Assembly (NCBI GenBank): GCA_041600715.1 | Contig: JBFIJM010000004.1 | Location: 1 to 60,860 of the forward strand | Length of the DNA stretch: 60,860 nucleotides | Source: Candidatus Saccharimonadales bacterium | Lineage (GTDB): Bacteria; Patescibacteriota; Saccharimonadia; Saccharimonadales; 2-12-FULL-41-12 | Reading direction: 5' to 3' | Part shown: positions 4,419-55,989 of the stretch, piece by piece | Position numbering within the stretch: position 1 is the stretch's first letter | How the letters are laid out: each line of letters begins with the position of its first letter | Notes under the pieces: model-generated | Seen by the model: only the letters and a program-made list of their open reading frames with translations | What the model was told of the DNA's origin: nothing | Databases searched by the model: none | Position numbers and translations under genes: made by a program

Positions 4419-4754
4419 ATGTGGGGGTTATCGACGTTGGTTGTTTTTGTTATAATGACATTATTAATATTGCACTTGTATAATACAGCATACGCCACGA
4501 GGGTGTACTTTTTTCACAGTGAATCATGTAAATATTGTATCGACCTTGAACCTGCTTGGGATATGTTTATTAATAGTTCTCCATCAAGTGTTCGTCCTAT
4601 GAAGATAGATAAAAATGCCAACACCAAGATGGCTGAGAATTTTGGTGTATCTTCTGTGCCGCATATTGTTAAAGTCCAGGGAGATAATCGATATGTTTAT
4701 GATGGCGATCGGTCAGCTGAAGATTTACTTAGATGGGCGAAGCGTGATGAATAA
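4419..4754 (+). CDS. Thioredoxin-fold protein with N-terminal membrane anchor
   Basis: The track ORF opens on TTG at 4305; the first ATG is 4419, preceded by TATATAGAA. CxxC motif in FHSESCKYCIDLEPAW, and a downstream FGVSSVPHIVKV typical of thioredoxins. Confidence 0.75.
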   Translation: MWGLSTLVVFVIMTLLILHLYNTAYATRVYFFHSESCKYCIDLEPAWDMFINSSPSSVRPMKIDKNANTKMAENFGVSSVPHIVKVQGDNRYVYDGDRSAEDLLRWAKRDE

Positions 4755-4830
4755 AAATTGAATTGATATTATAAATCAATTATTATATGGCTCAAATATC
4801 ATATAAATAATAGTTATATTTTTTTAAATA

Positions 4831-5424: not shown

Positions 5425-5433
5425 AGTTGTGCG

Positions 5434-6240: not shown

Positions 6241-6259
6241 TATATATTAAAACGAATAG
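6241..6259. promoter_or_regulatory. 19-nt divergent intergenic region beginning TATATAT
   Basis: Lies between the ATG of 5434..6240 (-) and the ATG of 6260..6934 (+). Confidence 0.35.
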
Positions 6260-6934: not shown

Positions 6935-7456
6935 TTATACGAATATTTCATTGAACGGTACCGGATTTAGGAAAGGTCCATTCCAGACAACCTGACCATC
7001 ATCATTCTTGATCGAGACCTTTACACCTTTCATTTTATCTAGATGACTATCATCAGCTCCTATATGGATGTTTTTAATACGCACATCTGTTCCAAGATCC
7101 AACTCGACCGATGACCCAATATCCATACTCCCATATGATAATTTACCAGGATACCCCGGAACCTTTATACTTGTAATAGGGATAGGTGTTTCGGAAAATT
7201 TATAAACAGAGACATATCTCCCTTCGATTTCTTTTTTATGTTTAAAACCTTCTCCAATGGGAGAAATTATTCGATCGTCTAATTTACAGTGGTTGGTTGT
7301 TTGTGCAAAACAATACCATATTAAGACTAATAATAGTAGTATAACAAATGTAAAAACTGCCCGATACACTTGTTTATTCAATGCCTCTATACATATCTCT
7401 GGTATTTTTGACACCCTGACCGGACCATGTTTAGTTTCGATAGTTTCTTCACTCAT
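6935..7456 (-). CDS. Hypothetical membrane-anchored protein
   Basis: 173-aa ORF with a TM segment (AVFTFVILLLLVLIWYCFA) and a beta-rich C-terminal domain. Confidence 0.6.
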   Translation of the reverse strand: MSEETIETKHGPVRVSKIPEICIEALNKQVYRAVFTFVILLLLVLIWYCFAQTTNHCKLDDRIISPIGEGFKHKKEIEGRYVSVYKFSETPIPITSIKVPGYPGKLSYGSMDIGSSVELDLGTDVRIKNIHIGADDSHLDKMKGVKVSIKNDDGQVVWNGPFLNPVPFNEIFV

Positions 7457-8464: not shown

Positions 8465-8532
8465 AATAGTGATAGATCAAATATACAGTATGTGTATTTC
8501 AATTTTTAGATTAATATAATATATAGTGTTTA

Positions 8533-10552: not shown

Positions 10553-10622
10553 TGTAAGTGTATATGGATATTAGACTTGTATTTTTCAATTTTTTAAGAG
10601 CAGTCGAAGACATGGTCAAGGT

Positions 10623-13702: not shown

Positions 13703-16675
13703 ATGAATCGATATCTTAAAGAAAACTCAGATGAACTTGGTCGGATAGTATGGTTTAAAAAAACTCCCGGTATCGATTATTCTGTAAGTGGCGGGTCTGC
13801 CGAGTCTGCCGAGTCTGCCGAGTCTGCCGAGTCTGCCGGGTCTGCCGGGTCTGCCGAGGCAAATATTAAACGTTTGATAAAATTCAAAGGCACCAATGAT
13901 CACTTATACGACCGATTCATATCAATTATAAATAATAAAAGTAGGAACATTGAATTCCCCAAGGGTACGTCTCATCGCGATTTCAGAAATAAATTTCTTG
14001 AAATTGTAGAATCAACGAAAAACGACGATGAATTTTTCAAAGTGTTTGGAAAATATTTTCGGGATATATCTGCCGAATCAAAATTCACCGAATTCGCTCG
14101 TGGTGAGAATCGAGCCAAAAACTTAAAGGGTAAATTTCCATTTGACGGTCGGTTCAATAGTAAATCAAGATATTTAGACTTCGGTACATTTAGAGGAGAA
14201 ATCGCTAAGGCAATTGCTAGTGAATATGGTATCGCGCCATCTAACATATATGGGGTCGACATAAAAAAACAAAAAGACCTGAAAGGTATTAAATTCAGCC
14301 TTATTAAGAAGGATGGAAAAATACCCCATAAAGATAATTACTTCGATCTTATAACTTGTCTTATGGTTTTACATCATGTCGATAAAGATTCATTGATATT
14401 TACTCTAAGCGAAATATTCAGGGTATTAAAACCAGGTGGTATACTTATCTTACGTGAACATGATTTAACAGGGATCGACTCACGCGAGTTTAGTATAATA
14501 TTAGATTTACTTCATCGATTCTATGACCAGTTGTGGGAACCAACAAGTTCATGGGATCAATGTGGTGATGATCATTCAACGAATTATATGTCAATAACAT
14601 GGCTTACTTCTAGAATGAAGGAAGTCGGTTTTGTCCAAGGAGGTGTATTCAATAATAAAAATTATAAGTACAATCCATTTAACACATATGATGTTGTTTT
14701 TACGAAATCTCTCGAAGGCGGATATACCCGTTCACCTACTAAATGTCAGTCGTCAAGTAGTAATTTGCCCGGTTGTAAGCCGTCAAGTGGGGTTTTATCA
14801 AAAAGCACATCGTCGCAGATCACAAAGCTAGATTTAACTACAGAATGCATTATCGATAGTATTCTTGATATTAAACCCAACAATGATCCTCCGTATGAAA
14901 TCTCCGACATAAAAAAAACAATTCCCTACGAATGCCATAGAGGATTTTTTAATATGAACGTTCACTACGGTCAAAGAAAATTACTACTGACCGAAATAGA
15001 ATTTTATTCTAAATGTCTCATCCGGCAGCAAGGAAATATTGTCATATACGCTGGGTCGGCATCGGGGGAACATACCCCTATTATCCTAGATATGTATAAA
15101 CATCTGAAATTTATTTTCATAGATCCCAACTACCACTCATTTGATAAATACACCTACCAATACATCTACCAAAATACACCTGTTATATTAAAGGATAACC
15201 TAAAACAGTTCAAACGTGGTGAAAAATATAAACATCTAACCAAAGTCGATTTCCTATATGGCGGAAGGGCAAATGTCATAGATACAGCTGTTCAATACCA
15301 AACAACATCAGTCGAAGATCCATTTATTGTTAAGTCACGTGAAGATTTCGAAGGGGGTTTATATAAAAATTTAATCTCGGACATTATGCAGAGCAAGCAT
15401 AGGGTTTTTATCATTCAAGATTATATGACTATTAAATTGACTGAGATGTTCAAGGAGTCGCTTGATATTTATAATGAGGTTAAGAAACTGAAGGGTGGAG
15501 TTGGAGTTGGAGTTGGAGTTGGAGTTGGAGTTGGAGTTGGAGTTGGAGCTAGCGGCGGCGGTCGCAAGGTGCCCAAAAAATCCGCGGCCGCGAAGATCGC
15601 TATTAAGAAGATTAATGACGACGACTCGTCGCCACTTGTATCGACACCATCGCCGGCATCATCGCCAAATGTAGAGCTATATTTTCTAACGGATATCCGG
15701 ACAAATTTATTCCAAGACTCGCCGCATGATATTGAAGTATTGTGGAACTACGCCCTTCAGGTTATATTCCTAAAAATTCTTCAACCAACCTACAGTATGT
15801 TAAAATTTCGCCCTCCATATTTCGGAGAACTAAAAAGTGAACTTACTCGAGGATTTACTCTTCTTATGGAAGACGACGAGGAGTATAAAAAAATTATACC
15901 ATCAGGTAAACATATGATTTCAAATGTGATTAAGGGTGATTTGAAATTTGTTCATGAAAATTATGGTCTTGACTTGTTCGGTAATTACTTAAATGATAAT
16001 TTTACTTATTTAGACAATGATTTTATCTACATACAGCCTTGGTCACCGAAGGGTTCAACAGAGACACGTTTGTTCATTTCTAGAAAAACTTTGTCCAAGC
16101 CATATATTATTTATGATCAATATGCTTGGGAAGATAAATTCTTCTATCTAAGATATTATAAAAATTACGCATACCATGGTGTGTTTTATGAAAAGATTAA
16201 AGATATGAATACAATTTATGATGGATGTTACGACTGCACCCGGGAGCTGATGATTTTAGGAGGGTACATGTTGTCTTTGAAAAACATAGATAAATTTACA
16301 ACTGTTCCAAAAAAATATGATCTCCAAGAGATAGCTAAAATATTTGATTCTCCGAAAAACATCAAAACTTTATTGAAGTTATCTCAAACCATCGAAAGAT
16401 ACACTTGGAGTAAACTTGGGGTTGATCAAAAATCAAGTTGGCATGGAATATTAAATAAACCACCCTCACAAATTATCTTGAATACTATTAAAAGACCTGG
16501 TGATAGTATTCAAGGATATTTATTGAATAAAAAAACCCGCAAGGCGGATTTGATTTACTCATATACTAGTCCTATATGTAAGGCAGTCGATCGGCTGCGC
16601 GCAAAAAACGCCAGAGACATATGCATGCAAAACTTCAAAGTAGTTAATGACCCATGGAGACTTGAACCAATTTAA
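13703..16675 (+). CDS. Fusion of a class I SAM-dependent methyltransferase with a poxvirus VP39-like cap-specific 2'-O-methyltransferase
   Basis: The N-terminal part carries FDLITCLMVLHHV...IFRVLKPGGILILREHD (Methyltransf_11-like). The C-terminal part carries HYGQRKLLLTEIEFY...IVIYAGSASGEHTPIIL...IFIDPN, matching the VP39 pattern GQLKLLLGELFFL...VVYIGSAPGTH. In-frame repeats: (SAE/SAG)7 at 13795..13857 and (GV)8 at 15497..15544. Confidence 0.7.
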   Translation: MNRYLKENSDELGRIVWFKKTPGIDYSVSGGSAESAESAESAESAGSAGSAEANIKRLIKFKGTNDHLYDRFISIINNKSRNIEFPKGTSHRDFRNKFLEIVESTKNDDEFFKVFGKYFRDISAESKFTEFARGENRAKNLKGKFPFDGRFNSKSRYLDFGTFRGEIAKAIASEYGIAPSNIYGVDIKKQKDLKGIKFSLIKKDGKIPHKDNYFDLITCLMVLHHVDKDSLIFTLSEIFRVLKPGGILILREHDLTGIDSREFSIILDLLHRFYDQLWEPTSSWDQCGDDHSTNYMSITWLTSRMKEVGFVQGGVFNNKNYKYNPFNTYDVVFTKSLEGGYTRSPTKCQSSSSNLPGCKPSSGVLSKSTSSQITKLDLTTECIIDSILDIKPNNDPPYEISDIKKTIPYECHRGFFNMNVHYGQRKLLLTEIEFYSKCLIRQQGNIVIYAGSASGEHTPIILDMYKHLKFIFIDPNYHSFDKYTYQYIYQNTPVILKDNLKQFKRGEKYKHLTKVDFLYGGRANVIDTAVQYQTTSVEDPFIVKSREDFEGGLYKNLISDIMQSKHRVFIIQDYMTIKLTEMFKESLDIYNEVKKLKGGVGVGVGVGVGVGVGVGASGGGRKVPKKSAAAKIAIKKINDDDSSPLVSTPSPASSPNVELYFLTDIRTNLFQDSPHDIEVLWNYALQVIFLKILQPTYSMLKFRPPYFGELKSELTRGFTLLMEDDEEYKKIIPSGKHMISNVIKGDLKFVHENYGLDLFGNYLNDNFTYLDNDFIYIQPWSPKGSTETRLFISRKTLSKPYIIYDQYAWEDKFFYLRYYKNYAYHGVFYEKIKDMNTIYDGCYDCTRELMILGGYMLSLKNIDKFTTVPKKYDLQEIAKIFDSPKNIKTLLKLSQTIERYTWSKLGVDQKSSWHGILNKPPSQIILNTIKRPGDSIQGYLLNKKTRKADLIYSYTSPICKAVDRLRAKNARDICMQNFKVVNDPWRLEPI

Positions 16676-17097: not shown

Positions 17098-19848
17098 ATG
17101 CTATCCAATGTACTAAGTCAGGTCGGCGGACTCGTCGAAAAAGGTGAATCGCTGGAGATAGAACTTAGATTGCTTATAGATTCCCGAGGGAATATTCCTA
17201 AATTTACTCCTCCGGTTTTTATAGATACTAAAGAATTCGTTGGAAGTGTAATAAAAAAATACTGTACGTCTTCGACATGTAGTATACTTGAACATATAGA
17301 CTTTTTTCAGTCCGCAAACATAGGAAGCGAACCATATCAACGTGTTCGCAATATTAAAACACTTGTGTTTAAAAATGGAGAGCAACAAAAATCCCTGAAA
17401 CATCTTCATAAAAAACGCACACTATTAAATCCAATTTATGTTACTGCCCCTGGTAAAATATCATATAAAGTAGGTGCATCTGCCGAATCTAAATCTGAAA
17501 TTGAAGTGACAACCCCTGATTTGGTTCGCGGAAAACTTCGCCTAAGCATTGTAGATCCTAAATTAAAAGGTTGGCGCATCGATATCACTCTAACAAAGAC
17601 TCTTGAAAAAGCCAGCACTTTCACCGAGGTTAAAAAAATAAGGGATAATCTACTGGTCAAGGGAATAAATATTGATAATTTTATGGAAAAAGCCCCATGG
17701 GAATATGCCGATTTAGTAGAGTTCGAATTAGAATGGATCGGTAAAAAATCAGTTACCCCCATTGATTTCTTAGTAGTGGATACATTATTATCTGAGAGAG
17801 AAAGCTATTTATCCTCAGAACTTGGTGAAAATAAAAACTACCTATTTGAAATATCTCAAATCATCGACCCTAAAATATCCTACTATTTTAAGAATACATC
17901 TAATGTATTGGATAAGTTAAGTCGAGGTAGTATTAAAAGATTATGGAACAACCCCATTGAACTATCAAAACAATCATATTATGATGAGGTTTATGAACCA
18001 ACGCTTGCAGGTGATCAATTCTACCTGACTGATAAGGCTGATGGATTTAGAGCGTTTTTACGCCTTGGCGAACGTGCGGATTTAATAGTATCAAATCCAG
18101 CAGCCACTGATGTATCTGAACATGAGAAGAAACTAACAGACGCTTTGGTCAAAGCCTCGAAAGGGAAACTAGATGAGGGATTAAGCAAATCATCAAGCAA
18201 ATCATCAAGCAAATCATCAGGTAAAATACATATTGCGGATGTTGAGGTCACCCCCCACGGTGTATTTATATTCGATGCCATCAAATATAATGGTGAAAAT
18301 ATTTCACACCTGTCATTTAAAGATAGACTTAAGTACTTCGACAAGATAGCGAAACAAATAGGAGATAAAAAATTACTTTCTTCAAAAGATTTTATTCTTG
18401 TTGCTGGAAAAGAGAAGGATATAAAAAAATCGATCCTTTCAATTCAAGGAACATTATCAAAAAAACCTTATGAAACAGATGGTATGATATTTTCATCAGC
18501 CGAAGGTTCCTATAGTCGAACAAAACATTACAAACACAAACCAGTAGAGAAGATGACCATCGACTTTTTGGTAAAAGAATGTCCCAAGGGTCTTCTGGGC
18601 ATAGCGCCGTATGTAAAAAAACCAAATTATATCTTGTTCTTCCTATTTGTAGGTGTTAATCGGGGGATGTTCCGCATGCTGAACATGGATAGGGTTAAAC
18701 GCTATAGTGAACTTTTTCCAGAATCCCATGGCGACTACTTCCCTATACAATTCTCACCATCGAGTAAACCGTTAGCCTATTTATATTGGCATCCGACATC
18801 GGCTACCTCGACTGAAGATGTGAAGAATCATGTATGTGAAATGCATTATGATGTGAAAAAGGAAGAGTGGTCCTTACACAGGATCAGGACAGATAAAGAT
18901 ACAGACGTTGCGAAAGGAATCGCGTTCGGTAATGATTTTCGCATTGCTGAGCTGATATGGAGGAACTACCAAAATCCGCTAACTGTTCAAGATCTATACA
19001 TTAAGCCACCTGGTGGTTACTTTAAACAACATGATAACCCCAGATACAAGACTACTAGAGCGTTTAATAGTTTTGTTAAAGGTCATCTACTTGAGCAATT
19101 CTCGGGGACTGATTGGACAGTTGATATGGGCGGCGGCAAGGGGCAGGATCTATTTAGATACGCCAAATACGAGTTTAAAAATGTTGTATTCTTAGAGATT
19201 GACGACGATGCAATATCTGAGTTGATCAACCGCAAGTATTCCTTAGGTAAGACGAATGCCAACATGGGCGTACATGTACTTAAGATGGACCTAAATAATA
19301 AAGCAGATGCTAATATACAAAAGATAAAAGACGTCAGATTTGGAATGTCACATAAAGGAGCCCAACTTATCGTTTGTAATTTTGCATTTCATTATTTCAT
19401 TAACGGAAGTGCCGCCGTTAAGAATATTGTATCTTTAGTGGCGGGATTGTTGGCACCAGGTGGTCGATTTATATTTACAGCGTTCGACGGTCGGGCTGTA
19501 TTTAATCTCCTAGCGCGTAACTCAGGCGAATGGACTGTAAAGGAGGATGGCGTTGTTAAATATTCTATCAAGCGTGCTTATAAATCTAACAGCCTAACAG
19601 GATCGGGACAAAAAATTGAGGTTATTCACCCCTTCAGCGATGGTAAATATTACGAGGAAACCCTTGTGAATAATAGCTACATTGAAAGCGCCTTTGGTAA
19701 AGTAAAGATGCGACGTGAATTATACGATTCTTTTGGAACTCTGTTTGGGCGATTTCAGAAAGAAAACCCATCTATGTCAGCGGGATTAAGTTCTGCAGAC
19801 AAAGATTATATTGGTTTATATTATTATTGTTCTTACTTCAAGGCTTAA
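17098..19848 (+). CDS. Tri-functional mRNA capping enzyme (RNA triphosphatase, guanylyltransferase, cap N7-methyltransferase)
   Basis: The N-terminal LEIELRL is a triphosphate-tunnel-type beta strand. The KxDG nucleotidyl-transferase motif LTDKADGFRAFL is at nt 18034..18045. The C-terminal SAM motif I is VDMGGGKGQDL, near nt 19130. The 916-aa length fits ASFV and giant-virus single-chain capping enzymes. Confidence 0.85.
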   Translation: MLSNVLSQVGGLVEKGESLEIELRLLIDSRGNIPKFTPPVFIDTKEFVGSVIKKYCTSSTCSILEHIDFFQSANIGSEPYQRVRNIKTLVFKNGEQQKSLKHLHKKRTLLNPIYVTAPGKISYKVGASAESKSEIEVTTPDLVRGKLRLSIVDPKLKGWRIDITLTKTLEKASTFTEVKKIRDNLLVKGINIDNFMEKAPWEYADLVEFELEWIGKKSVTPIDFLVVDTLLSERESYLSSELGENKNYLFEISQIIDPKISYYFKNTSNVLDKLSRGSIKRLWNNPIELSKQSYYDEVYEPTLAGDQFYLTDKADGFRAFLRLGERADLIVSNPAATDVSEHEKKLTDALVKASKGKLDEGLSKSSSKSSSKSSGKIHIADVEVTPHGVFIFDAIKYNGENISHLSFKDRLKYFDKIAKQIGDKKLLSSKDFILVAGKEKDIKKSILSIQGTLSKKPYETDGMIFSSAEGSYSRTKHYKHKPVEKMTIDFLVKECPKGLLGIAPYVKKPNYILFFLFVGVNRGMFRMLNMDRVKRYSELFPESHGDYFPIQFSPSSKPLAYLYWHPTSATSTEDVKNHVCEMHYDVKKEEWSLHRIRTDKDTDVAKGIAFGNDFRIAELIWRNYQNPLTVQDLYIKPPGGYFKQHDNPRYKTTRAFNSFVKGHLLEQFSGTDWTVDMGGGKGQDLFRYAKYEFKNVVFLEIDDDAISELINRKYSLGKTNANMGVHVLKMDLNNKADANIQKIKDVRFGMSHKGAQLIVCNFAFHYFINGSAAVKNIVSLVAGLLAPGGRFIFTAFDGRAVFNLLARNSGEWTVKEDGVVKYSIKRAYKSNSLTGSGQKIEVIHPFSDGKYYEETLVNNSYIESAFGKVKMRRELYDSFGTLFGRFQKENPSMSAGLSSADKDYIGLYYYCSYFKA

Positions 19849-24257: not shown

Positions 24258-24361
24258 TATATTATATTATAGGTTTCAAATTTAGCATGAATTCCTATAT
24301 CCGTCTAAAAAAAAATTGAATACATAATATGTATTATTAAACAACCTCTAATTAAGAGATT

Positions 24362-28684: not shown

Positions 28685-29032
28685 ATGTTTTATTCAATTT
28701 TTTTAAGTTTCACATATGTTATTCAAGAAGCGTTATGTCTGTTAAAAAACAAGAAGCGATTGATATTCACTGCAAAAATTGAACTACTTATCTTAATATT
28801 TAGCTTAATATTTAGCTTGATAATAATGCTCTATCCAATAAGTTTCATTGTGGGTTTATTATTAGGTGTATATATGACATCTGAGTTATACCGGAGAGAA
28901 GAAAGGATTCGAAGCACTGCCATTCTTAAAGAAGTCAAAAAAATAAGAGCATGTATTGACGAGGAAACCAATGAGTCTCGGTACGACTACTATCCGACTA
29001 CCGTTGGCCGTGCCCGTAGTAAAACGAGTTGA
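28685..29032 (+). CDS. Small multi-TM membrane protein
   Basis: 115-aa ORF with several hydrophobic segments and an internal duplication LIFSLIFSLI. Confidence 0.5.
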   Translation: MFYSIFLSFTYVIQEALCLLKNKKRLIFTAKIELLILIFSLIFSLIIMLYPISFIVGLLLGVYMTSELYRREERIRSTAILKEVKKIRACIDEETNESRYDYYPTTVGRARSKTS

Positions 29033-36373: not shown

Positions 36374-36411
36374 CGATGTGGATTTATGTTATAAAAAAAT
36401 CAAATTCAATT

Positions 36412-39640: not shown

Positions 39641-39761
39641 ATCTACATCATATTAATGTTAATACAGGATAGATTTATGACGATATTATTTCTAATATGC
39701 TAAAAAAATTGATTTTTTTTTCCTAGTTAACGTTTAGCCTGGATTTCCGGTAAACATTTTC

Positions 39762-42030: not shown

Positions 42031-42087
42031 CATATAAAAAAATTGAAAAAATATAATGCTATATAGTACTAACAGTACATAAAGATA

Positions 42088-42884: not shown

Positions 42885-43445
42885 TTATACATTGGAAAGT
42901 TGCTTATATAATCCTGCAAACCATACCCATCCGAACAGTTGAAGTACAACACCTGTTAATTTTAAGCAATGCGATGAAAGTAGAAACATTTGATAAGAAA
43001 AGATAACGACGCGGAATATCAAAAATGATATCATTTCGATAATAATCCAACATCTAATATTTTTTTTACCGAAGTTCGACGTGTGATGAATTATTGCATA
43101 TGCGAAATACAGAGGTATATTAGACAGCTCTAGTATAAAAAATGAATACATGCATATGGATTTATCTATTCCAAATTCAGAGCTTAGTAAATATATAGAT
43201 CCTAAGTGATGTAAGAAGTACATACTTAATATTCGCGAATTAAATAGATCATATACAAAAAATCCAATCGATATATTTGTATTTATATCTGATGAGTTTA
43301 TTAAATATTGTAACAGAACACTTGCACAATGAATAATACTCACCATATTTATATGGAATTTATTAGACTGTATAGGAAATATAAAAGGCAACGTCTTATG
43401 GATGATCATCCATAGAATGGTATATTGAACAACGGTGTCGATCAT
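42885..43445 (-). CDS. Multi-pass integral membrane protein
   Basis: 186-aa ORF with about six hydrophobic segments. Confidence 0.6.
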   Translation of the reverse strand: MIDTVVQYTILWMIIHKTLPFIFPIQSNKFHINMVSIIHCASVLLQYLINSSDINTNISIGFFVYDLFNSRILSMYFLHHLGSIYLLSSEFGIDKSICMYSFFILELSNIPLYFAYAIIHHTSNFGKKNIRCWIIIEMISFLIFRVVIFSYQMFLLSSHCLKLTGVVLQLFGWVWFAGLYKQLSNV

Positions 43446-43469: not shown

Positions 43470-45086
43470 TTATCCATTACTTAAATCATAAATATTATAT
43501 TTGTCTCCTCGAAATGTAACAACCTTGATTATTTTATATGTTGCAAAGAGTTTATTCGATATTAAATTATCAATATCAACCATTGCTAAGATCTTCAACT
43601 TTGGAAATTCTCCGATGAAGATAGGTAATATTTCCTTACCATATCCTTTACCTTGATATGGAGCATCGATTAATATACGAATAAATCTCTTATCTTTAAG
43701 GAATTTATGTTCAAATCCAGCGATGTAGTATCCTATAAATCCAATTAATTCGCCAGGTTGACATCTATCATTCAAACATATAGCGTAAAATCTGGCATAT
43801 GTTTCATTTTTATACTCCCGGATGTAGTTTGTCAACTGCACACGGACCTGAGATAGATTTTTAGTCTTGCCTGACGCTATATACTTCATGTTGTCCGGAT
43901 TATTTTGTATATCGTACATGCGCGGAAGGTCGGCCATTGTAAATTCACGAAGGGATATTCTTGATTTTTTTGTTGATGATTTGGTCGACTTAACTTTACT
44001 TTCTGACTTAACCTTACCTCCAGTTTTATCCTTAATAGTCTTAGCCTTTGACCAAATAAACATAGGTTGAGCTCGGGAAGTTTTGTGTTTTTCCGCGTAT
44101 GGAATAATACCCATATATTTAGCCTTAAATTTAGGGTCTTCCATATATTTTATCATCTCGTGAACATAGGTTTCATAACTCATACTATTTATCACCATAC
44201 ACATTATACCTTTCCCGTCATCCTTCACATTATCCCAAGCCTTTTCAAGATAAGGCTTGAAGAATTCTTCGGTCCATTTAGACTCGGATGTATGCTTAAT
44301 CGTTGACTGTTTCGCGTCTTGGGAGTATATCTCCATCTTAAAGTATGGTGGAGATGTGAACACAAGATCATACTTAGGTAAGTCCGGTGGCCGAACAAAC
44401 TCTTCAAATGGCATCTCAAATAGTTGGACTTGTCCGCCTAAATCAACCTCAAAGAACTCACATATATCTTTATATCGTGGGTGTACGACGGGATTAGGAT
44501 CGACTCCTGTGTAACTAGAGCCTGTTGCTATAGCGGCAATTAATCGGTCGCCCCATCCGGCTGACGGGTCAAGGACAGATATTGGAGAGGTTTTATAGGA
44601 CGGGAAAAATAGCTGTATTATTGCTATCATATTTGATGGGCGGAAGCTAGTACATTCGCGGGCATCTTTGATGGCCCACCGTGTCTCGATCAAATTTGGT
44701 CCGTCAATCACCCCATATTCTTTAAGACATTTCTCAGCTAGTTCCTTTGTCTTGCTATGAAAATACTCCCATGGTGAATACTTTGATCCAGCAAATTTAC
44801 ACTTCATGCGTTCCTCTTCCATGAACATGTCAGATAAGATATTAAAATCTTCGTAGTCACTTGGAAGATTTAATAGTAGCTTATTTTCTCCCTTGAATCC
44901 TGGTGTAACCTTAATATTGGCTATGGTATACTTCAGAGTCTTAAATCGAGATTTAAAGTTATATTCTTTTAAATTAGCCATCATATCCTTAATATCATCA
45001 TCTGTCTTGTTATCTCTTTTCGTAGGGAACTTGATAAGACCCTTCTTGAAATCTTTTAAAAATTGATTTACATCATTGTACATCAT
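43470..45086 (-). CDS. Fusion of a (D/N/S)PPY-family SAM-dependent methyltransferase with a GNAT acetyltransferase
   Basis: The N-terminal two-thirds carry SVLDPSAGWGDRLIAA (SAM motif I) followed by DLVFTSPPYF (motif IV, SPPY). The C-terminal ~170 aa carry the GNAT motif A, IDAPYQGKGYGKEIL. A Lys/Ser-rich linker joins them. Confidence 0.7.
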   Translation of the reverse strand: MMYNDVNQFLKDFKKGLIKFPTKRDNKTDDDIKDMMANLKEYNFKSRFKTLKYTIANIKVTPGFKGENKLLLNLPSDYEDFNILSDMFMEEERMKCKFAGSKYSPWEYFHSKTKELAEKCLKEYGVIDGPNLIETRWAIKDARECTSFRPSNMIAIIQLFFPSYKTSPISVLDPSAGWGDRLIAAIATGSSYTGVDPNPVVHPRYKDICEFFEVDLGGQVQLFEMPFEEFVRPPDLPKYDLVFTSPPYFKMEIYSQDAKQSTIKHTSESKWTEEFFKPYLEKAWDNVKDDGKGIMCMVINSMSYETYVHEMIKYMEDPKFKAKYMGIIPYAEKHKTSRAQPMFIWSKAKTIKDKTGGKVKSESKVKSTKSSTKKSRISLREFTMADLPRMYDIQNNPDNMKYIASGKTKNLSQVRVQLTNYIREYKNETYARFYAICLNDRCQPGELIGFIGYYIAGFEHKFLKDKRFIRILIDAPYQGKGYGKEILPIFIGEFPKLKILAMVDIDNLISNKLFATYKIIKVVTFRGDKYNIYDLSNG

Positions 45087-45150
45087 TGGATTATTTTGTT
45101 GCTCTTAGTAACAAAATTGTCTATATATACTGTTGAATTCAAATTTTAAC

Positions 45151-48100
45151 ATGTCCAAACCAACATTTATTATAGATGCAGGCGCAGGCGAGGATAAATC
45201 GACTGGATCAAACATGTCCCTGAATTTAAAAAAAGCATATATTCTTAAGCGTAAACTAGAGATGTTTGGATGGAAAGATGTTGGTGTTAGACTGGGTAAA
45301 CCACCAAAATTCGTCGACTTGCTCTATCTCGACTCGTTCGCCGATTGGAGAAAATATAAAAACACTCGATGTTATTTTAAAAACCTAGTCAAAGATTCAA
45401 TACTGTCCATAAGTGATAAATCTTTACTATATCATAACTTAGGCAAAATCGATTCGCATATAAGGGACACTTTCATGATGAGACAAATTGACGTTAACAT
45501 TACAGACTCGTCAAGCATCGAGGCATGTGAAAAATTGTTCGATGGGAGGATGTGGATTTTTAAACCAGTCGCCGGATGGAGTGGTAAAGGTATACAAGTT
45601 TTTAATAGTTACAACGGATTTAAAGAATACGCAGAATCGATTGACGTAGAAAACTGGAAATTTTTTAAATCAAAATCTTCAAGAGCTTCAATTTGGGTAC
45701 TCTCTGAATATATAGAAAATCCATTACTTATAGACGGCCATAAATTTCACTTGAGGCTTTATTTTACAGTGTATAAAAATACTAAAGGAGTAAAATCGTT
45801 CCTACACAACACTGGAATTATAATGGTGTCTAAATTTAAATATGATTTGTCATCCAGCGACATAGTAATACATAGTGTTCATAGCGACGACTCAGAAAAA
45901 CACGAGTTTCCTCGTGAGTATATTAAGTACTTCACTGAAAAAAATGCTAAAAAATTACATAACGACCTCCTAAAAATATTCAAAGCAGTCTCGAAGATAG
46001 ATTTTATGGAATGTTTTGAGGAGTCAAAAAAATGTTTTTATGATTTTGGATGTGATGTTATGATCACGGATAAATATGAGACCAAGCTTATCGAGATAAA
46101 CGACAAAGCTGGCATATCAAGTTTCATAACTATCGATAAATTTGGTAAATGTTATGTACCAAATTTGATGAAATTGATATTTGATCCTGTATTCTTTCCT
46201 AAATTGACCAACCCCGAGAAAAAAATACGGTATACCGATACGGATTATACTCTTATAAGTGTTGGAGAAGGTGGAGATGTAAATAAATCTACCACAAAAA
46301 CCTTTACAGTTTATCTATACAATACAGACACAGGATTTCAAAAACATTCTATTGATTATTTTAATAGATATGGATGGACACACATCCCCATTAGTCGAAA
46401 CATGAAGGGTCATATTAATTATCTCGACTATTCTCTAGACCATTGGCGATATTTTCAGAATGTAACTTCAGACATACGTTCGTCAGCTGACCCCTCACGA
46501 AAAAGATGGAAAGATAAATCTAGTCTATACAATGTTTTGGGGTCGACCCCACGGGGTAAACTTATCCGTGACAAATTCATGATGAAGCAATATGATGTTG
46601 ATTCGAATAATATCATGGGTGAATCGAAGCAATCCGAGAAGTTTAAAGAATTTAAGAACATATTTGATGGACGGAAATATATATTAAAACCAATAACAGG
46701 ATGGAAGGGTCTTGGTATAAAAATTACGGCATCACATAATGAAGCGTTGAAACATTTTAACCAAACTAACCAAATGGACTGGATTTATCACAAAGATAAA
46801 CAATCTGAATCAACTAAATGGGTTATTGCTGAGTACATTGATAACCCTCTTTTAATCCAAGGATGTAAATTTCATATCAGGGCATATTTTATGGTCTACC
46901 TGGATTCAGGATTTAAGACTGGAGCCACTCCGAAAATTAAAGGATATTTATTTAAGACAGGAATAATTATGCAAGCCATAAAAAAGTATAGACCGTCAAA
47001 TTACGATGACGATCAGGTACATAATATCCACGCTGGCAATTCAATAAAAAAAATATATCCAAATACTTTTATAAAAGAATTTGGACTCGCAACCACCAAT
47101 AAAATTAATACTAATATGCAGGAGTATTTTATTGAATTGTTCAATATTATAAACACAGGTTGTTACCCTGAAACTAAGAATTGCTTTACTCTTTACGGCG
47201 CTGACATCATGTTTGATGCGTCGTTTAATGTGAAAATACTCGAGATAAATTCATCTATCGGACGCAAATCTTTATCTGAAAAAAAAGAAGCATATGAATT
47301 TATGAACAACATATTTTCCATATGTATCGTACCAAACTATGGAAAACCTGCGAAATGGAAAGACCTCAAAGCTTATTGGGTAATCGGAGAAAAGTGTATC
47401 GATGATAAAAAATCGGCAGGTTCGATTGGTAAAATATCAGGGTCGGAGCGTCAAAAAACATATCTTATAGATTTAAAAGTCAAAGATTCTAAACCGTTTG
47501 AAAAGCAATTAACGAAGTATCTTGACGATAATGGGTGGGTTAACCACTTAGATTTATTTGCACCAGATGATGGAATCGACCACACAGTCGGTCTACTAAT
47601 ACATAAAAAATATGATTGGAAATCATATGACAAATATAAATCCACAATCCATGCATCTACAGAAAATGAACGGTCAATCACAAATAAATCAGCAATTTAT
47701 GATATCTCCGGAATAAAAAAATATATGATGCCCCAGTATACTATTGATTCAAGGAACAGCGATGATCTTGAAAGGGTGAAGAAATATTTTACTGGTAAAA
47801 TTCGATTTATAGTTAAACCTATGATGGGGTCCATTGGAATGGGTATATTTATAGCAAATACCCATCAAGCGTTGTTGAAAAATTTAGGTAGTAGCCATGT
47901 AGTGATTTATGATATGTATAAAAAAAGCGCTGATGTATATAGATGGATATTAGCCGAATATATTGAAAACCCTCTACTACTCAAGGGGCGTAAGTTTCAT
48001 ATACGTGTATTCTATCTTGTGACTGTGATTAATGGCGTCATTCGAGCATACATATATGGTAAAAATTACATAATGTACGCGACAAAGAAATATAATAAAA

Positions 48101-49698
48101 CATCAACTGACATACTGGTGCATAATATACATTCCGATAATTCTTCTAAATGTGTATTTCCCAAATGCTACACCGACGAATTTGGTCAAGCGAAGACTGA
48201 TAAATTAATAAAAGACTTGAAGGATATCTTTACTATTATTTTTAAGGTGTATAAATCTAAATGTTATGATAGCTCGGACCATTGTTACAACGTTTTTGGT
48301 GCTGACATAATGGTTACCGATAAATATGAAACGAAAATCATAGAGCTAAATCAAGAACCTGGTAAAAAGTATTTATCTGAGTCGACCGAATTATTCGATC
48401 ATTATACGCAAAATCTACAAGAGCTTGTGATTAATCCAGTATTTGGCCCTCCAACCACTGAGTGGAAAGATAAACATTCATATGTGCAAGTTGGTGGGCC
48501 TAAGCTCAGCAATGGTAAATCTTCATCATCGCAGATAGGAGGAGATAGAGATGCGAGTGATGCGAGTGATGCGAGTGATGACGAAACTAAAAAACAAATT
48601 TATGAAGGTGAAAAACACACCTTCGCCGTTGAGTCGGATTATTTTGCCCCATACCTAAATAAGAAAATAATAGAACTTGGTGCTGGGATGTGGGAAGAAT
48701 TTTCTTTATCGTCGTCGGCCAGACAAGGTGATCAAAAAATATCATTCCTCTACATGGATAATCTATCACTTCCTTGGAAAAAATATAAAAATACCCATGC
48801 AACTGTAAAAAATGTAGTCGATAATACTAAATATAGCATTGCCGATAAAGCAAACTTATATCAAAATCTTGCCGGGCCTGTGCGTAAGAAATTTATGCCA
48901 CTTCAGTATACGATAGATTTAGGTACAGAACCGGATGGCTTCACCAAATGGTGTGAGTGTAACTGTGAGAAATATCGTAAAATTATTAAACACGACATGT
49001 GGATGCTTAAACCAGTAACTGGGTACAAAGGTATTGGGATAAAAATGGTGGATAATTTCGGCGACTTCAAACGTCATCTTAGAGAGCATCGTCAAGAAGA
49101 TCATGCACATGGGTCTGAGCGATCCAAACGAGTTGGTGTATGGGTCCTATCTAAATACATAGATCCACCGCTGCTGTTTAAAGGGCATAAATTTCATATA
49201 CGTCTATATTATTTAGTTAGTCAAATCGAGGGCAAAGTACATGGGTATATATTTAAATCTGGCCACCTTTATATTTCAAAAAAGAAATATAAAATGTCTA
49301 GCCATTCGACAGACATCCATAATTTGCATCTTGATAATTCTAACATAGATTTATTCCCTGAAAGTTACGCCAAAGAATTTGGTGTTGATGCATGTGTTAA
49401 ATTATACACGGAAATCTATAAAATGTTTCAAGGAGTATTCGACATAACTAAAATTGGATGTTTCGACGACTCTTCAAATTGTTACTATATCTATGGAGCC
49501 GACATTATGGTTACAGAAGACGGGTGTCCCAAACTACTGGAGGTTAATACCTCTCCACATCTTGGTGTTATGAACATTAATAAAACGTTAGCCAACCGAT
49601 ATGTCACTAATATATTCTCATTAGTATTAAATCCTATATTCGGCGAACCACCTGGATTTCCTAAGAATAATGATTATATTCTCATTGGGGAGAAATAA
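45151..49698 (+). CDS. Protein with four tandem tubulin-tyrosine-ligase-like (TTL, ATP-grasp) modules
   Basis: The track ORF opens on TTG at 45133; the first ATG is 45151. Four modules start at about nt 45151, 46290, 47455 and 48610. Each carries W(I/M)xKP..G..G.GI, WV(L/I)(S/A)(E/K)YI(E/D).PLL..G.KFH(L/I)R.Y and (F/Y)G.D(V/I)M......K(L/I)(L/I)E(I/L/V)N. Confidence 0.8.
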   Translation: MSKPTFIIDAGAGEDKSTGSNMSLNLKKAYILKRKLEMFGWKDVGVRLGKPPKFVDLLYLDSFADWRKYKNTRCYFKNLVKDSILSISDKSLLYHNLGKIDSHIRDTFMMRQIDVNITDSSSIEACEKLFDGRMWIFKPVAGWSGKGIQVFNSYNGFKEYAESIDVENWKFFKSKSSRASIWVLSEYIENPLLIDGHKFHLRLYFTVYKNTKGVKSFLHNTGIIMVSKFKYDLSSSDIVIHSVHSDDSEKHEFPREYIKYFTEKNAKKLHNDLLKIFKAVSKIDFMECFEESKKCFYDFGCDVMITDKYETKLIEINDKAGISSFITIDKFGKCYVPNLMKLIFDPVFFPKLTNPEKKIRYTDTDYTLISVGEGGDVNKSTTKTFTVYLYNTDTGFQKHSIDYFNRYGWTHIPISRNMKGHINYLDYSLDHWRYFQNVTSDIRSSADPSRKRWKDKSSLYNVLGSTPRGKLIRDKFMMKQYDVDSNNIMGESKQSEKFKEFKNIFDGRKYILKPITGWKGLGIKITASHNEALKHFNQTNQMDWIYHKDKQSESTKWVIAEYIDNPLLIQGCKFHIRAYFMVYLDSGFKTGATPKIKGYLFKTGIIMQAIKKYRPSNYDDDQVHNIHAGNSIKKIYPNTFIKEFGLATTNKINTNMQEYFIELFNIINTGCYPETKNCFTLYGADIMFDASFNVKILEINSSIGRKSLSEKKEAYEFMNNIFSICIVPNYGKPAKWKDLKAYWVIGEKCIDDKKSAGSIGKISGSERQKTYLIDLKVKDSKPFEKQLTKYLDDNGWVNHLDLFAPDDGIDHTVGLLIHKKYDWKSYDKYKSTIHASTENERSITNKSAIYDISGIKKYMMPQYTIDSRNSDDLERVKKYFTGKIRFIVKPMMGSIGMGIFIANTHQALLKNLGSSHVVIYDMYKKSADVYRWILAEYIENPLLLKGRKFHIRVFYLVTVINGVIRAYIYGKNYIMYATKKYNKTSTDILVHNIHSDNSSKCVFPKCYTDEFGQAKTDKLIKDLKDIFTIIFKVYKSKCYDSSDHCYNVFGADIMVTDKYETKIIELNQEPGKKYLSESTELFDHYTQNLQELVINPVFGPPTTEWKDKHSYVQVGGPKLSNGKSSSSQIGGDRDASDASDASDDETKKQIYEGEKHTFAVESDYFAPYLNKKIIELGAGMWEEFSLSSSARQGDQKISFLYMDNLSLPWKKYKNTHATVKNVVDNTKYSIADKANLYQNLAGPVRKKFMPLQYTIDLGTEPDGFTKWCECNCEKYRKIIKHDMWMLKPVTGYKGIGIKMVDNFGDFKRHLREHRQEDHAHGSERSKRVGVWVLSKYIDPPLLFKGHKFHIRLYYLVSQIEGKVHGYIFKSGHLYISKKKYKMSSHSTDIHNLHLDNSNIDLFPESYAKEFGVDACVKLYTEIYKMFQGVFDITKIGCFDDSSNCYYIYGADIMVTEDGCPKLLEVNTSPHLGVMNINKTLANRYVTNIFSLVLNPIFGEPPGFPKNNDYILIGEK

Positions 49699-49701
49699 AG
49701 G

Positions 49702-51006
49702 TTATTTTATAATCACCGGATGTAGTTTATCAAAATTATTTATTAACTCGACCAAATATGTCGGTCTATATTTCTGCCGGATCTTTCTATATAATAAATA
49801 TTTATTATACAATGACAATTTGTAGTTGTCGTCCATATATTTTTTTTTTATATATTCAATATTTTCGGGTGTCACTAAAAATTTATGTTCATCGGTATAT
49901 TTTTTAAACTCTGCGGAATTCTCATCGATAGTGGGTGGATTTTTAACAAGTTCTTGCATCTTTATATTCGTACGAAATAAAATCATCGCTAAGAGGGCAA
50001 CTCTGAACCCTTTATTTTCATCTAACTGCATATCTTTCATGAAATCGCCCACATCAATAATTGGATTTGCCAATGTAAATAATATAATAAATAAAGACCA
50101 CGACTTACATAATTCATCGTTACCTTGTAATGTTATTAAGTTTCCCTTCCATTTCCACCGGCGAATCCCGAATTTGTCGAAAGTTCTGTAAAACCACTTT
50201 TTTACAATATTATATCTTATATCGCTACCCGTTTCTGGATTAGCGTCGGGATTACCTTCAATATTTATGCCACCATGTGGCTCAAAATAATAAATTGTCT
50301 TAGTTTTAGAATTGATCAATATAGTATTGCTATGCGATGCCACTATACCAGCGTACGACCATGATAAATTAATCACTGATATTTCATCAGACGTGAAAGA
50401 CTTAACCATAAATCTTTCCAATTCATTCATTTGATTAACTATATGACCTACATTGGTTAAATCAAAAAAGGACACACGGTATCTTTTATATTCATCTGGC
50501 TCTGTTATAGATGTTATGGGGATATGCAAATCTTGTAATTTCTCCGCTACATCGTAAGGTTTAAACGCGGCTTGTAATGTAAAAGAAAGCACCTGTTTGC
50601 CAATAACTAGGTTAATAACTTGATCAATGCGATTGGTCCTGTCGGCTATAAACGATGCTATATTTCCGAACATACCCTTTTCTTCACCGCGGTTGTTTAT
50701 AAAATCATAGAATTGACGCTTGATCAGTGAATCTCCAGACTTAAAAATAGTAGAATATTCCTGCGGCCATGGATAGTTATAATAATATATAGTGCGTGAT
50801 GTTAAAAATTGACCTATCCAAAAGAATGGAGAATTTGAAAAATTAGTTGATTGTCCTAACGGAATAGCTAATTTATAATTACTTTGACATTTAATATTAC
50901 ATTCCTCAAATGTAAGTCTTCCATGGTAAGGATGTCGTTCACATTTAAACTTATCCTTTTTGACATAACAATAATAATCTTCTGGTGGAGTAGGTATAAA
51001 TTCCAT
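49702..51006 (-). CDS. Putative Ulp1/SUMO-protease-like (adenain-fold) cysteine protease
   Basis: ASHSNTILINSKTKTIYYFEPHGG fits H.....(I/L)......(I)YY(F)(D/E)..G, and LQGNDELCKSWSLFII fits Q.N..(D/E)C......, giving His-Asp/Glu-Gln-Cys order as in C48, poxvirus I7 and ASFV S273R-type proteases. Confidence 0.5.
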   Translation of the reverse strand: MEFIPTPPEDYYCYVKKDKFKCERHPYHGRLTFEECNIKCQSNYKLAIPLGQSTNFSNSPFFWIGQFLTSRTIYYYNYPWPQEYSTIFKSGDSLIKRQFYDFINNRGEEKGMFGNIASFIADRTNRIDQVINLVIGKQVLSFTLQAAFKPYDVAEKLQDLHIPITSITEPDEYKRYRVSFFDLTNVGHIVNQMNELERFMVKSFTSDEISVINLSWSYAGIVASHSNTILINSKTKTIYYFEPHGGINIEGNPDANPETGSDIRYNIVKKWFYRTFDKFGIRRWKWKGNLITLQGNDELCKSWSLFIILFTLANPIIDVGDFMKDMQLDENKGFRVALLAMILFRTNIKMQELVKNPPTIDENSAEFKKYTDEHKFLVTPENIEYIKKKYMDDNYKLSLYNKYLLYRKIRQKYRPTYLVELINNFDKLHPVIIK

Positions 51007-52758: not shown

Positions 52759-52799
52759 CGTGCAGTTTATAGATATATTGAGTAAGATGTTTTCAATTT

Positions 52800-55931: not shown

Positions 55932-55989
55932 ATTGTACTAAACAGAAAATTGAAATATACATATAACATATAACATATAACAATTTTAG

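Follow-up and report, generated by a model that had tools for sequence, protein, structure and literature searches.

The window considered here, a stretch of 60,860 nt, is part of a contig that belongs to a mimivirus-like giant virus. On its minus strand, at 43470..45086 (stop codon at 43470-43472), there is an ORF with an ATG start that encodes a protein of 538 aa, exactly as claimed in the preliminary description. The protein begins with a predicted methyltransferase module, which we call MOD (aa 1-349), consisting of an N-terminal subdomain (aa 1-145; 44652..45086) and a Rossmann methyltransferase core (aa 146-349; 44040..44651) that are conserved together throughout the family. A disordered, basic linker rich in Lys and Ser (about aa 350-372, 43971..44039, within a Lys/Ser-rich stretch at aa 347-376) leads into a GNAT N-acetyltransferase domain (aa 373-538; 43473..43970) matching PF13302. 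An ECTSFRP pre-motif is found at aa 144-150, followed by the SAM-binding motif I, VLDPSAGWGDRLIAA (aa 171-185; 44532..44576), and the catalytic motif IV, DLVFTSPPYF (aa 240-249; 44340..44369), and the GNAT domain contains the acetyl-CoA pyrophosphate-binding motif A, QGKGYGKEIL (aa 478-487; 43626..43655), all on the minus strand. The AlphaFold2 model of the whole protein has a pLDDT of 92.5.

The MOD-GNAT gene diverges from a gene on the plus strand (45133..49698) whose 1521-aa product contains four TTL-like ATP-grasp modules (4xTTL). The two genes have in common a divergent intergenic region of 64 nt (45087..45150) containing TATATATA and AAAATTG-like words; early promoter words of the AAAATTGA type often precede genes of the window, and the exact word was not found upstream of the MOD-GNAT gene. 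The other neighbours are a 186-aa ORF without a family match and helicases. Approximately 24 kb away is the gene for an mRNA capping enzyme with guanylyltransferase and N7-methyltransferase domains (17098..19848, plus strand), adjoined by a gene for a 990-aa protein (13703..16675, plus strand) in which an MT23 class-I methyltransferase is joined to a VP39-like cap 2'-O-methyltransferase. All three of these neighbours have counterparts that are fused to MOD in other viruses: the TTL enzyme type of the 4xTTL protein is found fused to MOD-GNAT, the capping enzyme type to MOD, and the MT23 domain of the 990-aa protein is homologous to the MT23 that is fused to MOD elsewhere. A complex prediction for MOD-GNAT with the first TTL module gave a score of 0.00, which speaks neither for nor against binding. 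Acidic tails of low complexity, such as polyglutamylases prefer, are present on several proteins of the window.

The two halves of the protein

The order of motifs in MOD, motif I (VLDPSAGWGDR) and then motif IV (FTSPPYF), had suggested an amino-methyltransferase, and the model agrees with this, being that of a canonical class-I Rossmann methyltransferase (pLDDT 95). Strands beta1 to beta4 are modelled at aa 170-173, 191-195, 220-223 and 241-244, with motif I (D173-G179), motif II (D196), motif III (F227/E228) and motif IV (S245-Y248) following them. Across 70 relatives D173, G177, G179, R181, D196 and P247 are invariant or nearly so, T244-S245-P246 is conserved at 90% or more, and the N-terminal subdomain has positions conserved across the family at P21, F88 and R93. 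MOD is predicted to be a SAM-dependent amino-methyltransferase module. FTSPPY at aa 243-248 agrees with [LIVMF]-T-S-P-P-[FY], the PROSITE-type signature of N4-cytosine methyltransferases, in which the TSPPY motif is typical. Pfam returned only matches below threshold for this half (Eco57I, 17.8 bits; N6_N4_Mtase, 17 bits); PF01555 scored 17 bits against a cut-off of 26.7 over positions 2-128 of its 221, and MOD has motif I (aa 171) ahead of motif IV (aa 244), the opposite of the beta-class order of PF01555. The MOD module stops right after motif VIII, and no C-terminal target-recognition domain was found in it. A phmmer search of PDB sequences with the whole protein gave no meaningful match and a search of NCBIfam gave only noise. 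Foldseek and VIA-align searches with the MOD model returned a flat list of class-I methyltransferases with no subfamily singled out, and the fold is therefore no guide to whether DNA, RNA or protein is the target.

The profile that the catalytic core matches best is mad2 of PADLOC (PDLC04134; E 4.7e-11, aa 168-317), although the match spans only positions 292-415 of the 492 in the profile, that is, the catalytic core, and the PADLOC profile is without a curated cut-off. For mad2 of the Pseudomonas aeruginosa MADS system, genetic evidence supports a role as a DNA methylase (10.1101/2023.03.30.534895). Like MOD, Mad2 is a SAM-dependent amino-methyltransferase with motif I before motif IV, aligned in one contiguous match. 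Mad2 differs in being a bacterial defence protein of approximately 490 aa that methylates a DNA motif and has no GNAT domain, the match leaves the N-terminal subdomain of MOD uncovered, and the partners of Mad2 are defence genes whereas those of the MOD family are RNA-capping and TTL enzymes. The mad1-mad8 operon was not found around the MOD-GNAT gene, where the 4xTTL gene, the 186-aa ORF and the helicases are located instead. Enzymes of the PF01555 type (TTHA0409, 2zie; bdelloid N4CMT, 8s9n; the M.PvuII type) share with MOD the TSPPY-type motif IV, the next helix and the glycine loop of motif I, and 2zie and 8s9n were found in a profile search of the PDB at E values of 5.7e-6 and 8.9e-5. Because motif IV comes first in these enzymes and motif I comes first in MOD, the PDB match falls into two swapped pieces, and, unlike in the PF01555 enzymes, no DNA-recognition domain was identified in MOD. 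In both the ESM Atlas and BFVD the nearest clusters bear the automatic name N4-cytosine DNA methyltransferase. In sequence, the MOD core lies closest to DNA amino-methyltransferases, namely MADS Mad2, the N4-cytosine enzymes and phage homologues.

The order of pre-motif, motif I and motif IV, together with the same Rossmann core, is also that of RNA methyltransferases acting on guanine N2 or adenine N6 (aTrm11, TrmN/Trm14, RsmC/RsmD and METTL5), although these have Asp or Asn in motif IV where MOD has Ser. The top structural neighbour is aTrm11 (5e72; Z 15.0, rmsd 3.2 over 179 residues, 21% identity), tied with unrelated O-methyltransferases that also reach Z 13-15; the protein glutamine methylase PrmC is among the matches at Z 13.2. 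The 538-aa protein has no match to the RNA methyltransferase families of Pfam (PF03602 and relatives), weak matches of the PF03602 type being present in a few relatives (e.g., P0169 at 3.8e-6), and no THUMP or similar RNA-binding domain was recognised in MOD.

The C-terminal half, where the preliminary description had proposed a GNAT domain behind the Lys/Ser-rich linker, is a GNAT domain of the RimL/MccE type. Its score for PF13302 (Acetyltransf_3, RimJ/RimL-like; aa 376-513) is 46.7 bits (E 6.9e-12), well above the curated Pfam cut-off of 25.4, and its model, with a pLDDT mostly of 90-97 and dips to 77-82, retrieves AAC(6')-Ib, SpeG, MccE and RimL in Foldseek at E values of about 4e-8 and target TM scores of 0.67-0.77. 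Motif A (Q/R-x-x-G-x-G/A) is intact as QGKGYG at aa 478-483; it is kept in most homologues with the fusion, P0007 being one of a few in which it is degenerate. RimL (1s7l) and MccE (3r96) superpose on this half at target TM scores of 0.73-0.74. RimL and RimJ, however, are standalone bacterial enzymes acting on the N-termini of ribosomal proteins, while the GNAT of MccE is the C-terminal domain of a different protein and acts on an aminoacyl-nucleotide, and since identity to RimL and MccE is only 15-18% their substrates are not transferable to the viral domain. The linker falls below a pLDDT of 50 at aa 358-372, and a tandem repeat behind it was looked for in its coding sequence and not found. 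Both GNAT and linker are basic (median GNAT pI 9.5).

One could argue that two separate genes have been joined artificially through misassembly or a frameshift, a possibility already raised in the preliminary description and one that a mixed metagenomic bin, the sole point in its favour, might encourage. We rejected this explanation and regard it as practically negligible. The linker is in frame, a complete GNAT fold follows it, and full-length homologues as distant as 29% identity, drawn from numerous independent contigs and sources, have the same architecture, with 14 of them (29-57% identity) aligned end to end; conservation of this kind among relatives shows that the fusion is not a frameshift artefact. 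The identity of the domains, their intact catalytic motifs, the conservation of the fusion and the network of related fusions described below are established.

The MOD family and its fusion partners

MOD belongs to a large, unnamed viral family with 2183 representatives at E<1e-10. A GNAT domain is present in 41 of 249 MOD-family proteins (29 MOD-GNAT, 7 plain GNAT-MOD and 5 longer chains with TTL, MT23 or an N7-methyltransferase), and the joining of methyltransferase to GNAT is the commonest fusion of this giant-virus family. For methyl and acetyl transfer in a single chain, which the preliminary description did not recognise as a standard architecture, we found no paper describing a MOD-GNAT cassette in the literature that could be searched, but the architecture is not rare and recurs across giant-virus relatives. 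The search for split homologues that the preliminary description had proposed was also informative, as GNAT and MOD are adjacent separate genes (5684-6268 and 6299-7363) beside a major capsid protein gene on the NCLDV contig L004, and the reverse order of GNAT and methyltransferase exists together with longer fusions.

Other partners of MOD in single chains are TTL-like ligases, a second class-I methyltransferase, complete capping enzymes and cap methyltransferases of the FtsJ, Tgs and PCIF1 types. Among 39 long relatives TTL was counted 10 times, GNAT 8, N7-methyltransferase 6, and FtsJ, Tgs and PCIF1 3 times each. Capping domains are joined to MOD in P0185 (TPase-GTase-N7MT-MT23-MOD) and P0173 (GTase-N7MT-Tgs-MOD), P0206 and P0169 are further single-chain fusions, and a PCIF1-like domain follows MOD in P0154. 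GNAT and TTL are combined with MOD in P0175 (GNAT-TTL-MOD-N7MT), P0140 (MT23-GNAT-MOD-TTL), P0247 (TTL-GNAT-MOD), P0130 (MOD-GNAT-TTL) and in P0152 and P0165 (both FtsJ-MOD-GNAT-TTL), the last two being in the same 94%-supported clade as the 538-aa protein. PF01555 is weakly matched in 26 of 56 relatives, and an extra DNA-methylase-type PF01555 domain is present in P0191 and in P0205 (FtsJ-MOD-PF01555-Tgs-MT11). A large class of relatives of approximately 600 aa joins MOD to a weak PLP-enzyme (PALP) domain that is below the Pfam threshold. No nuclease, helicase or recognisable DNA-specificity subunit was found in approximately 95 multi-domain relatives scanned.

The same components are also found as neighbours. 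On contig L007 a TTL gene, a GNAT-TTL gene, an FtsJ gene and a MOD gene lie inside 8.4 kb, with a PurF-like amidotransferase and a HAD hydrolase between GNAT-TTL and FtsJ/MOD. A search of metagenome contigs with the single protein gave only two short loci, and a search for longer proteins with a GNAT domain gave only two. Family searches of four IMG/VR records for TTL and NCLDV capsid proteins gave no match, and the controls gave none either. For most standalone MOD genes of viral contigs no TTL or GNAT lies within 8 kb, some viral records have three or four MOD paralogues, tandem MOD arrays are present in two viral records, and the homologues of cultured phages are surrounded by genes of DNA metabolism (dCMP deaminase, helicase and SbcD). 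In a FastTree phylogeny of 233 MOD modules at least 20 changes of GNAT state are needed, of which well-supported branches force only one; the two domain orders, MOD-GNAT and GNAT-MOD, imply at least one rearrangement. Giant viruses have a mix-and-match cassette of MOD, GNAT, a TTL-like ATP-grasp ligase and another class-I methyltransferase, frequently with an FtsJ-type methyltransferase as well, whose parts are encoded as neighbours or as fusions and are repeatedly joined to the capping enzyme and to cap methyltransferases. The 538-aa protein has a full-length MOD (aa about 3-349) with LDxSxGWGDR and TSPP[YF]F, its GNAT is fused and the 4xTTL gene is 46-64 nt away. Through this network, which spans many giant viruses that have not been cultured, TTL, MOD and GNAT are linked to the apparatus of viral mRNA capping.

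Possible functions of MOD-GNAT

The likeliest role for MOD-GNAT, to which we give a probability of about 0.4, would be that of a modifier of the 5' ends of nascent viral mRNA coupled to transcription or capping. The protein, with MOD tethered through a floppy basic linker to an acetyl-CoA-dependent GNAT, would act where viral mRNA is synthesised. A base at the 5' end, or close to it, would be methylated on its exocyclic amino group in the TSPPY pocket of MOD, GNAT would acetylate a primary amine, either of this substrate or of a component associated with it, and the neighbouring 4xTTL protein may serve the same pathway; we infer both this substrate and any cooperation of the two activities. 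We favour this reading because MOD is fused to capping enzymes and cap methyltransferases, because its MT23 partner is here fused to a VP39-like enzyme beside the capping enzyme, because structural neighbours of MOD include the RNA amino-methyltransferases aTrm11, METTL5, TrmN and RsmC, and because GNAT and linker are basic. Enzymes of the mimivirus R382 type (TPase-GTase-N7MT) and of the Tgs, VP39/FtsJ and PCIF1 types each share a chain with MOD in other giant viruses. Such fusions lend indirect support to the cap-proximal nucleotide that the preliminary description named among the possible targets; its idea that both activities modify one substrate is a possibility, and DNA is a serious competitor as the target. 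MOD, GNAT and TTL are not, however, among the known viral capping activities, and no known cap structure needs them. The mRNA reading is weakened because the best sequence matches of the core are DNA methyltransferases, because homologues occur in cultured phages, which make no caps, and because most standalone MOD genes are without a nearby TTL or GNAT gene. Furthermore, a ligase of the TTL ATP-grasp type needs a carboxylate, which ordinary RNA does not have, and this partner is therefore better suited to a protein or amino-acid substrate. If the mRNA 5' end is indeed the target, MOD-GNAT would represent a new class of cap-proximal modification enzymes, with a bearing on the marking of viral mRNAs by giant viruses and perhaps on engineered mRNA caps. 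With its small size, its well-folded model and its intact active sites, the 538-aa protein is a handy start for biochemistry.

A wider proposal, which we put forward tentatively and consider doubtful, is that MOD-GNAT, the TTL-like ligase, MT23 and FtsJ-type enzymes make up a writer system, specific to giant viruses, for a composite novel modification whose target would be either the 5' end of viral mRNA or the machinery of transcription and capping itself. The mark might be a base carrying N-methyl or N-acetyl groups, or an adduct derived from an amino acid that is later N-capped. If so, the virus would gain its own means to tell viral from host messages.

It is also conceivable, though somewhat unlikely, that MOD acts as an orphan DNA amino-methyltransferase of the virus (N4-cytosine or N6-adenine), derived from phage-type enzymes, to which GNAT is attached as an unrelated passenger or for action on a DNA-associated protein. 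The Mad2 match, the beta-class N4/N6 DNA methyltransferases found by profile search of the PDB, the TSPPY motif and the weak PF01555 matches among relatives are all as this would predict; the phage homologues carry DNA-methylase annotations and are located among genes of DNA metabolism, and the tandem MOD arrays recall those of DNA methyltransferases. The PF01555 score is nevertheless below threshold with the motif order permuted, and the names of the ESM Atlas and BFVD clusters, which agree with a DNA target, were assigned automatically. MOD also is without a C-terminal target-recognition domain, and the multi-domain relatives, apart from the extra PF01555 domains of P0191 and P0205, combine MOD with capping enzymes, cap methyltransferases, TTL, GNAT and PLP-type domains instead of nucleases, helicases or DNA-specificity subunits. 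Should the target be DNA or protein, a function would even so be defined for a methyltransferase family that is among the largest without a name in the Nucleocytoviricota.

To our knowledge, TTL-family enzymes are known only as protein ligases, and MOD-GNAT and the TTL ligase could accordingly be a protein-modification set that adds amino acids, acetylates N-termini or lysines and methylates Gln, Lys or N-termini, with viral transcription machinery or host tubulin or ribosomal proteins as targets. We think this unlikely, even though GNAT resembles RimL and RimJ, which acetylate protein N-termini, PrmC is one of the (N/D/S)PPY enzymes, and MOD, GNAT and TTL are fused in every order. The acidic tails on window proteins are of the right kind for such a set, and viral TTL has been interpreted in publications as a modifier of the cytoskeleton with which host microtubules are manipulated (PMC11915834; PMC13196603). 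The fusions of MOD, to complete capping enzymes as well as to cap methyltransferases of four kinds, point instead to RNA, the MOD core is nearest in sequence to nucleic-acid methyltransferases, and there is no protein substrate that we could name. The pair might instead modify a small molecule, with amino acids, polyamines, aminoglycoside-like compounds and aminoacyl-nucleotides as conceivable substrates and the ATP-grasp ligase building an amide that is then N-acetylated or N-methylated. This seems quite improbable to us, and it leaves the capping-enzyme fusions unexplained. The top structural matches of GNAT, AAC(6')-Ib, SpeG and MccE, acetylate amines of small molecules, in the case of MccE an aminoacyl-nucleotide, but matches within the GNAT fold are generic; the PALP domains that relatives of approximately 600 aa join to MOD would fit as well, were their matches not below the Pfam threshold. 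Also in keeping with a small-molecule substrate are the PurF-like amidotransferase and HAD hydrolase amid the cassette on L007, and a Satyrvirus relative that has been named 'glutathione synthase'.

Architecture of the fusion protein and its recurrence

The gene at 43470-45086 (-) is, as the preliminary description had claimed, a single ORF of 538 aa; it starts with ATG, and the motifs quoted in that description are all present: motif I (VLDPSAGWGDRLIAA) at aa 171-185, motif IV (DLVFTSPPYF) at aa 240-249 and the GNAT motif QGKGYGKEIL at aa 478-487, with a linker rich in Lys and Ser at aa 347-376. Its assignment of the C-terminal half to the GNAT acetyltransferases was borne out by three tests: this half scores 46.7 bits against PF13302 in Pfam (cut-off 25.4, E 6.9e-12), matches AAC(6')-Ib, SpeG, MccE and RimL in Foldseek (E ~4e-8, target TM 0.67-0.77), and falls within GNAT clusters of bacterial type in the ESM Atlas. 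The N-terminal half, the SAM-dependent amino-methyltransferase module MOD, did not reach Pfam thresholds (Eco57I 17.8 bits, N6_N4_Mtase 17 bits). Modelled with the alignment of its relatives, it is a class-I Rossmann methyltransferase (pLDDT 95) in which strands 1-4 are each followed by motif I, II (D196), III (F227/E228) or IV (S245-Y248), respectively. In the whole-protein model (pLDDT 92.5) disorder is confined to the linker at aa 358-372; repeat encoding was looked for in the linker and not found.

Word-indexed and exhaustive searches of JGI, ENA, NCBI and Logan assemblies recovered full-length homologues that share this architecture at identities as low as 29%, and the invariant columns of their alignment (n=18) are the catalytic ones: L172, D173, S175, G177-R181, D196-P197, T244-P247, F249, E252 and Y254. 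HMMs built for both domains and run on all 249 fetched family proteins detected GNAT in 41, with the order MOD-GNAT in 29, plain GNAT-MOD in 7, and longer chains with TTL (a tubulin-ligase-like ATP-grasp enzyme), MT23 (a second class-I methyltransferase) or an N7-methyltransferase in 5. The N-terminal GNAT of family protein P0087 is also PF13302, with 23% identity to the window GNAT. Split homologues, which the preliminary description had proposed to look for, exist on IMG/VR contig L004, where GNAT (5684-6268) and MOD (6299-7363) are separate genes with a gap of 30 nt and adjoin an NCLDV major capsid protein gene. These adjacent genes, together with the recurrent fusion homologues, rule out the artefact that it had raised, a frameshift joining two genes. 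Since the coupling persists whichever domain comes first, and also where the two are neighbouring genes, it argues that GNAT and MOD act in one pathway, not necessarily on the same atom. The architecture is real and conserved and, judged by its motifs, catalytically intact.

The MOD family and its partners

MOD is one conserved unit (residues ~3-349) that includes an N-terminal subdomain of 145 aa. Clustered at 50% identity, the family comprises 2183 representatives (E<1e-10), from standalone modules of ~330 aa to proteins of up to 2530 aa, and its relatives occur across Nucleocytoviricota, including metagenomic pithovirus-like and klosneuvirus-like genomes; cultured phages hold weaker relatives. 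In BFVD the whole fold is found in an uncharacterised Salmon gill poxvirus protein (A0A0H4Y1D9, 422 aa, E 4.5e-19), so that MOD is present in a poxvirus as well, and in Satyrvirus A0A3G5AD75 (699 aa, E 5.2e-22), which is named 'Glutathione synthase' and appears to be a MOD and ATP-grasp fusion mis-named for its ligase half. No curated family covers MOD, and its automatic names conflict (RsmD, TrmN6, DNA modification methylase, N4-cytosine DNA methyltransferase). Paralogues, each an ORF of ~384-447 aa, were seen in two IMG/VR records from a giant virus or jumbo phage, four within 8 kb in L009 (149 kb; 63780-71773) and three in L024 (290 kb). At nine IMG/VR loci (L016, L017, L018, L026, L031, L032, L037, L070 and L076) MOD aa 145-291 or 145-306 matched across ~1650 nt by tblastn, while the ORF holding the match is only ~410 aa, which suggests a second adjacent MOD copy or an insertion.

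To survey the partners, 39 long relatives and 56 of medium length were scanned with Pfam, as were some proteins singly, and in none of these was a nuclease, helicase or DNA-specificity partner seen. The 39 long relatives carry TTL (10), GNAT (8), mRNA N7-methyltransferase (6), and FtsJ, Tgs-type cap N2-methyltransferase and PCIF1-type domains (3 each). Fusions of MOD recur both with the complete capping enzyme and with cap methyltransferases of four kinds. Read from N to C terminus, the chains include triphosphatase-guanylyltransferase-N7MT-MT23-MOD (P0185), guanylyltransferase-N7MT-Tgs-MOD (P0173), GNAT-TTL-MOD-N7MT (P0175), FtsJ-MOD-PF01555-Tgs-MT11 (P0205), FtsJ-MOD-GNAT-TTL (P0152, P0165), MT23-GNAT-MOD-TTL (P0140), TTL-GNAT-MOD (P0247), MOD-GNAT-TTL (P0130) and MOD followed by a PCIF1-like domain (P0154). 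The window protein shares one clade of the MOD tree with P0152 and P0165 (support 94%), and P0191 and P0205 have an extra bona fide PF01555 domain besides MOD. GVMAG contig L007 carries TTL, a GNAT-TTL fusion, an FtsJ-like gene and a standalone MOD in a stretch of 8.4 kb, where genes for a HAD-family hydrolase (3050-4072, +) and a PurF-like glutamine amidotransferase/phosphoribosyltransferase (4476-5993, -) separate the GNAT-TTL fusion from the FtsJ/MOD pair. In a large class of relatives of ~600 aa, represented by P0043, P0049, P0146 and P0083 (~575-740 aa), MOD is followed by a C-terminal domain that matches PLP-dependent enzymes (PALP, PF00291) weakly and below threshold.

Candidate substrates

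By sequence profile the closest relatives of MOD are DNA amino-methyltransferases. TTHA0409 and the bdelloid N4-cytosine methyltransferase match its core with the half-domain order swapped, and FTSPPY in the window protein agrees with the N4-cytosine signature. The PADLOC mad2 profile matches aa 168-317 (E 4.7e-11), and mad2 deletion leads to loss of DNA motif methylation (10.1101/2023.03.30.534895). Phage homologues are surrounded by dCMP deaminase, replicative helicase and SbcD genes. The structural match list is flat (Z 13-15), with aTrm11, METTL5, TrmN, RsmC and PrmC among O-methyltransferases. Sequence and model together indicate an exocyclic or amide nitrogen as the probable target atom, and this mixed likeness does not settle whether the substrate is DNA, RNA or protein.

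In our leading reading, to which we give a probability of about 0.4, MOD would methylate the amino group of a base at the 5' end of nascent viral mRNA or close to it. Recruitment of DNA amino-methyltransferases to RNA has happened repeatedly, with the MT-A70 lineage as the textbook case, and for this reason context was weighted most. Ancestry and sequence likeness point to a DNA methyltransferase, which is less likely than the leading reading but rivals it seriously; the giant-virus-specific context, in which MOD is fused to the capping enzyme and cap methyltransferases, points to the machinery that makes mRNA. Modification of proteins by the MOD, GNAT and TTL set fits best with the TTL partner, which requires a carboxylate, and is slightly less likely than a DNA target. 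A small-molecule target, hinted at by the small-molecule type of the structural neighbours of GNAT, by the PALP fusions and by the PurF and HAD neighbours on L007, seems improbable.

MOD-GNAT is one form of a so far undescribed modification cassette of giant viruses that has links to mRNA capping. A literature search found no paper on the MOD-GNAT fusion or on the cassette; viral TTL has been interpreted in the literature as acting on the cytoskeleton (PMC11915834, PMC13196603), and a 2026 paper on a medusavirus Cap3 methyltransferase shows that higher-order caps in giant viruses are an active topic.

Genomic setting

The window contig has giant-virus-like gene content, with a capping enzyme (17098-19848, +), a VP39-like protein, TTL and several helicases of D6/D11, SNF2 and UvrD type. 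Cassette parts are spread out here. The MOD-GNAT gene adjoins a divergent gene (45133-49698, gap 46-64 nt) whose 1521-aa product has four TTL modules, and MT23 is fused to the VP39-like enzyme, with 33-34% identity to the MT23 of P0140 and P0185 (E 5e-21 and 2e-16). This 990-aa protein (13703-16675, +), a class-I methyltransferase (aa 133-310) plus VP39-like cap 2'-O-methyltransferase, is encoded next to the capping enzyme gene. It includes a (GV)n run, and its ~400 C-terminal residues received no domain assignment. Pfam gave no match at E<=0.01 for two further ORFs, one of 186 aa downstream of the MOD-GNAT gene (42885-43445, -) and one of 434 aa that follows the TTL gene (49702-51006, -).

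Many window genes have the mimivirid early-promoter word AAAATTGA 25-60 nt ahead of their start codons, for example at 4754-4761, 24312-24319, 39705-39712, 42039-42046 and 55946-55953 (+) and at 3502-3509, 8499-8506, 10586-10593, 28694-28701, 36406-36413 and 52793-52800 (-). The total of AAAATTGW, 23 versus a shuffle expectation of 16.4, is not far above chance, so that the signal is in the positions; this placement resembles that of the early promoter of Mimiviridae and assigns the virus to Imitervirales or their vicinity. The assembly is listed as a prokaryote genome (98.65% complete) and is a mixed bin: contig C1 (771 kb, GC 0.42, 39 tRNA genes) looks cellular, while C3, C4 (the window contig), C7, C9, C12 and C13 (GC 0.37-0.41) look viral and are rich in AAAATTGA, several such contigs, the window contig among them, being of 30-70 kb. 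The MOD-GNAT gene has one copy within the bin.
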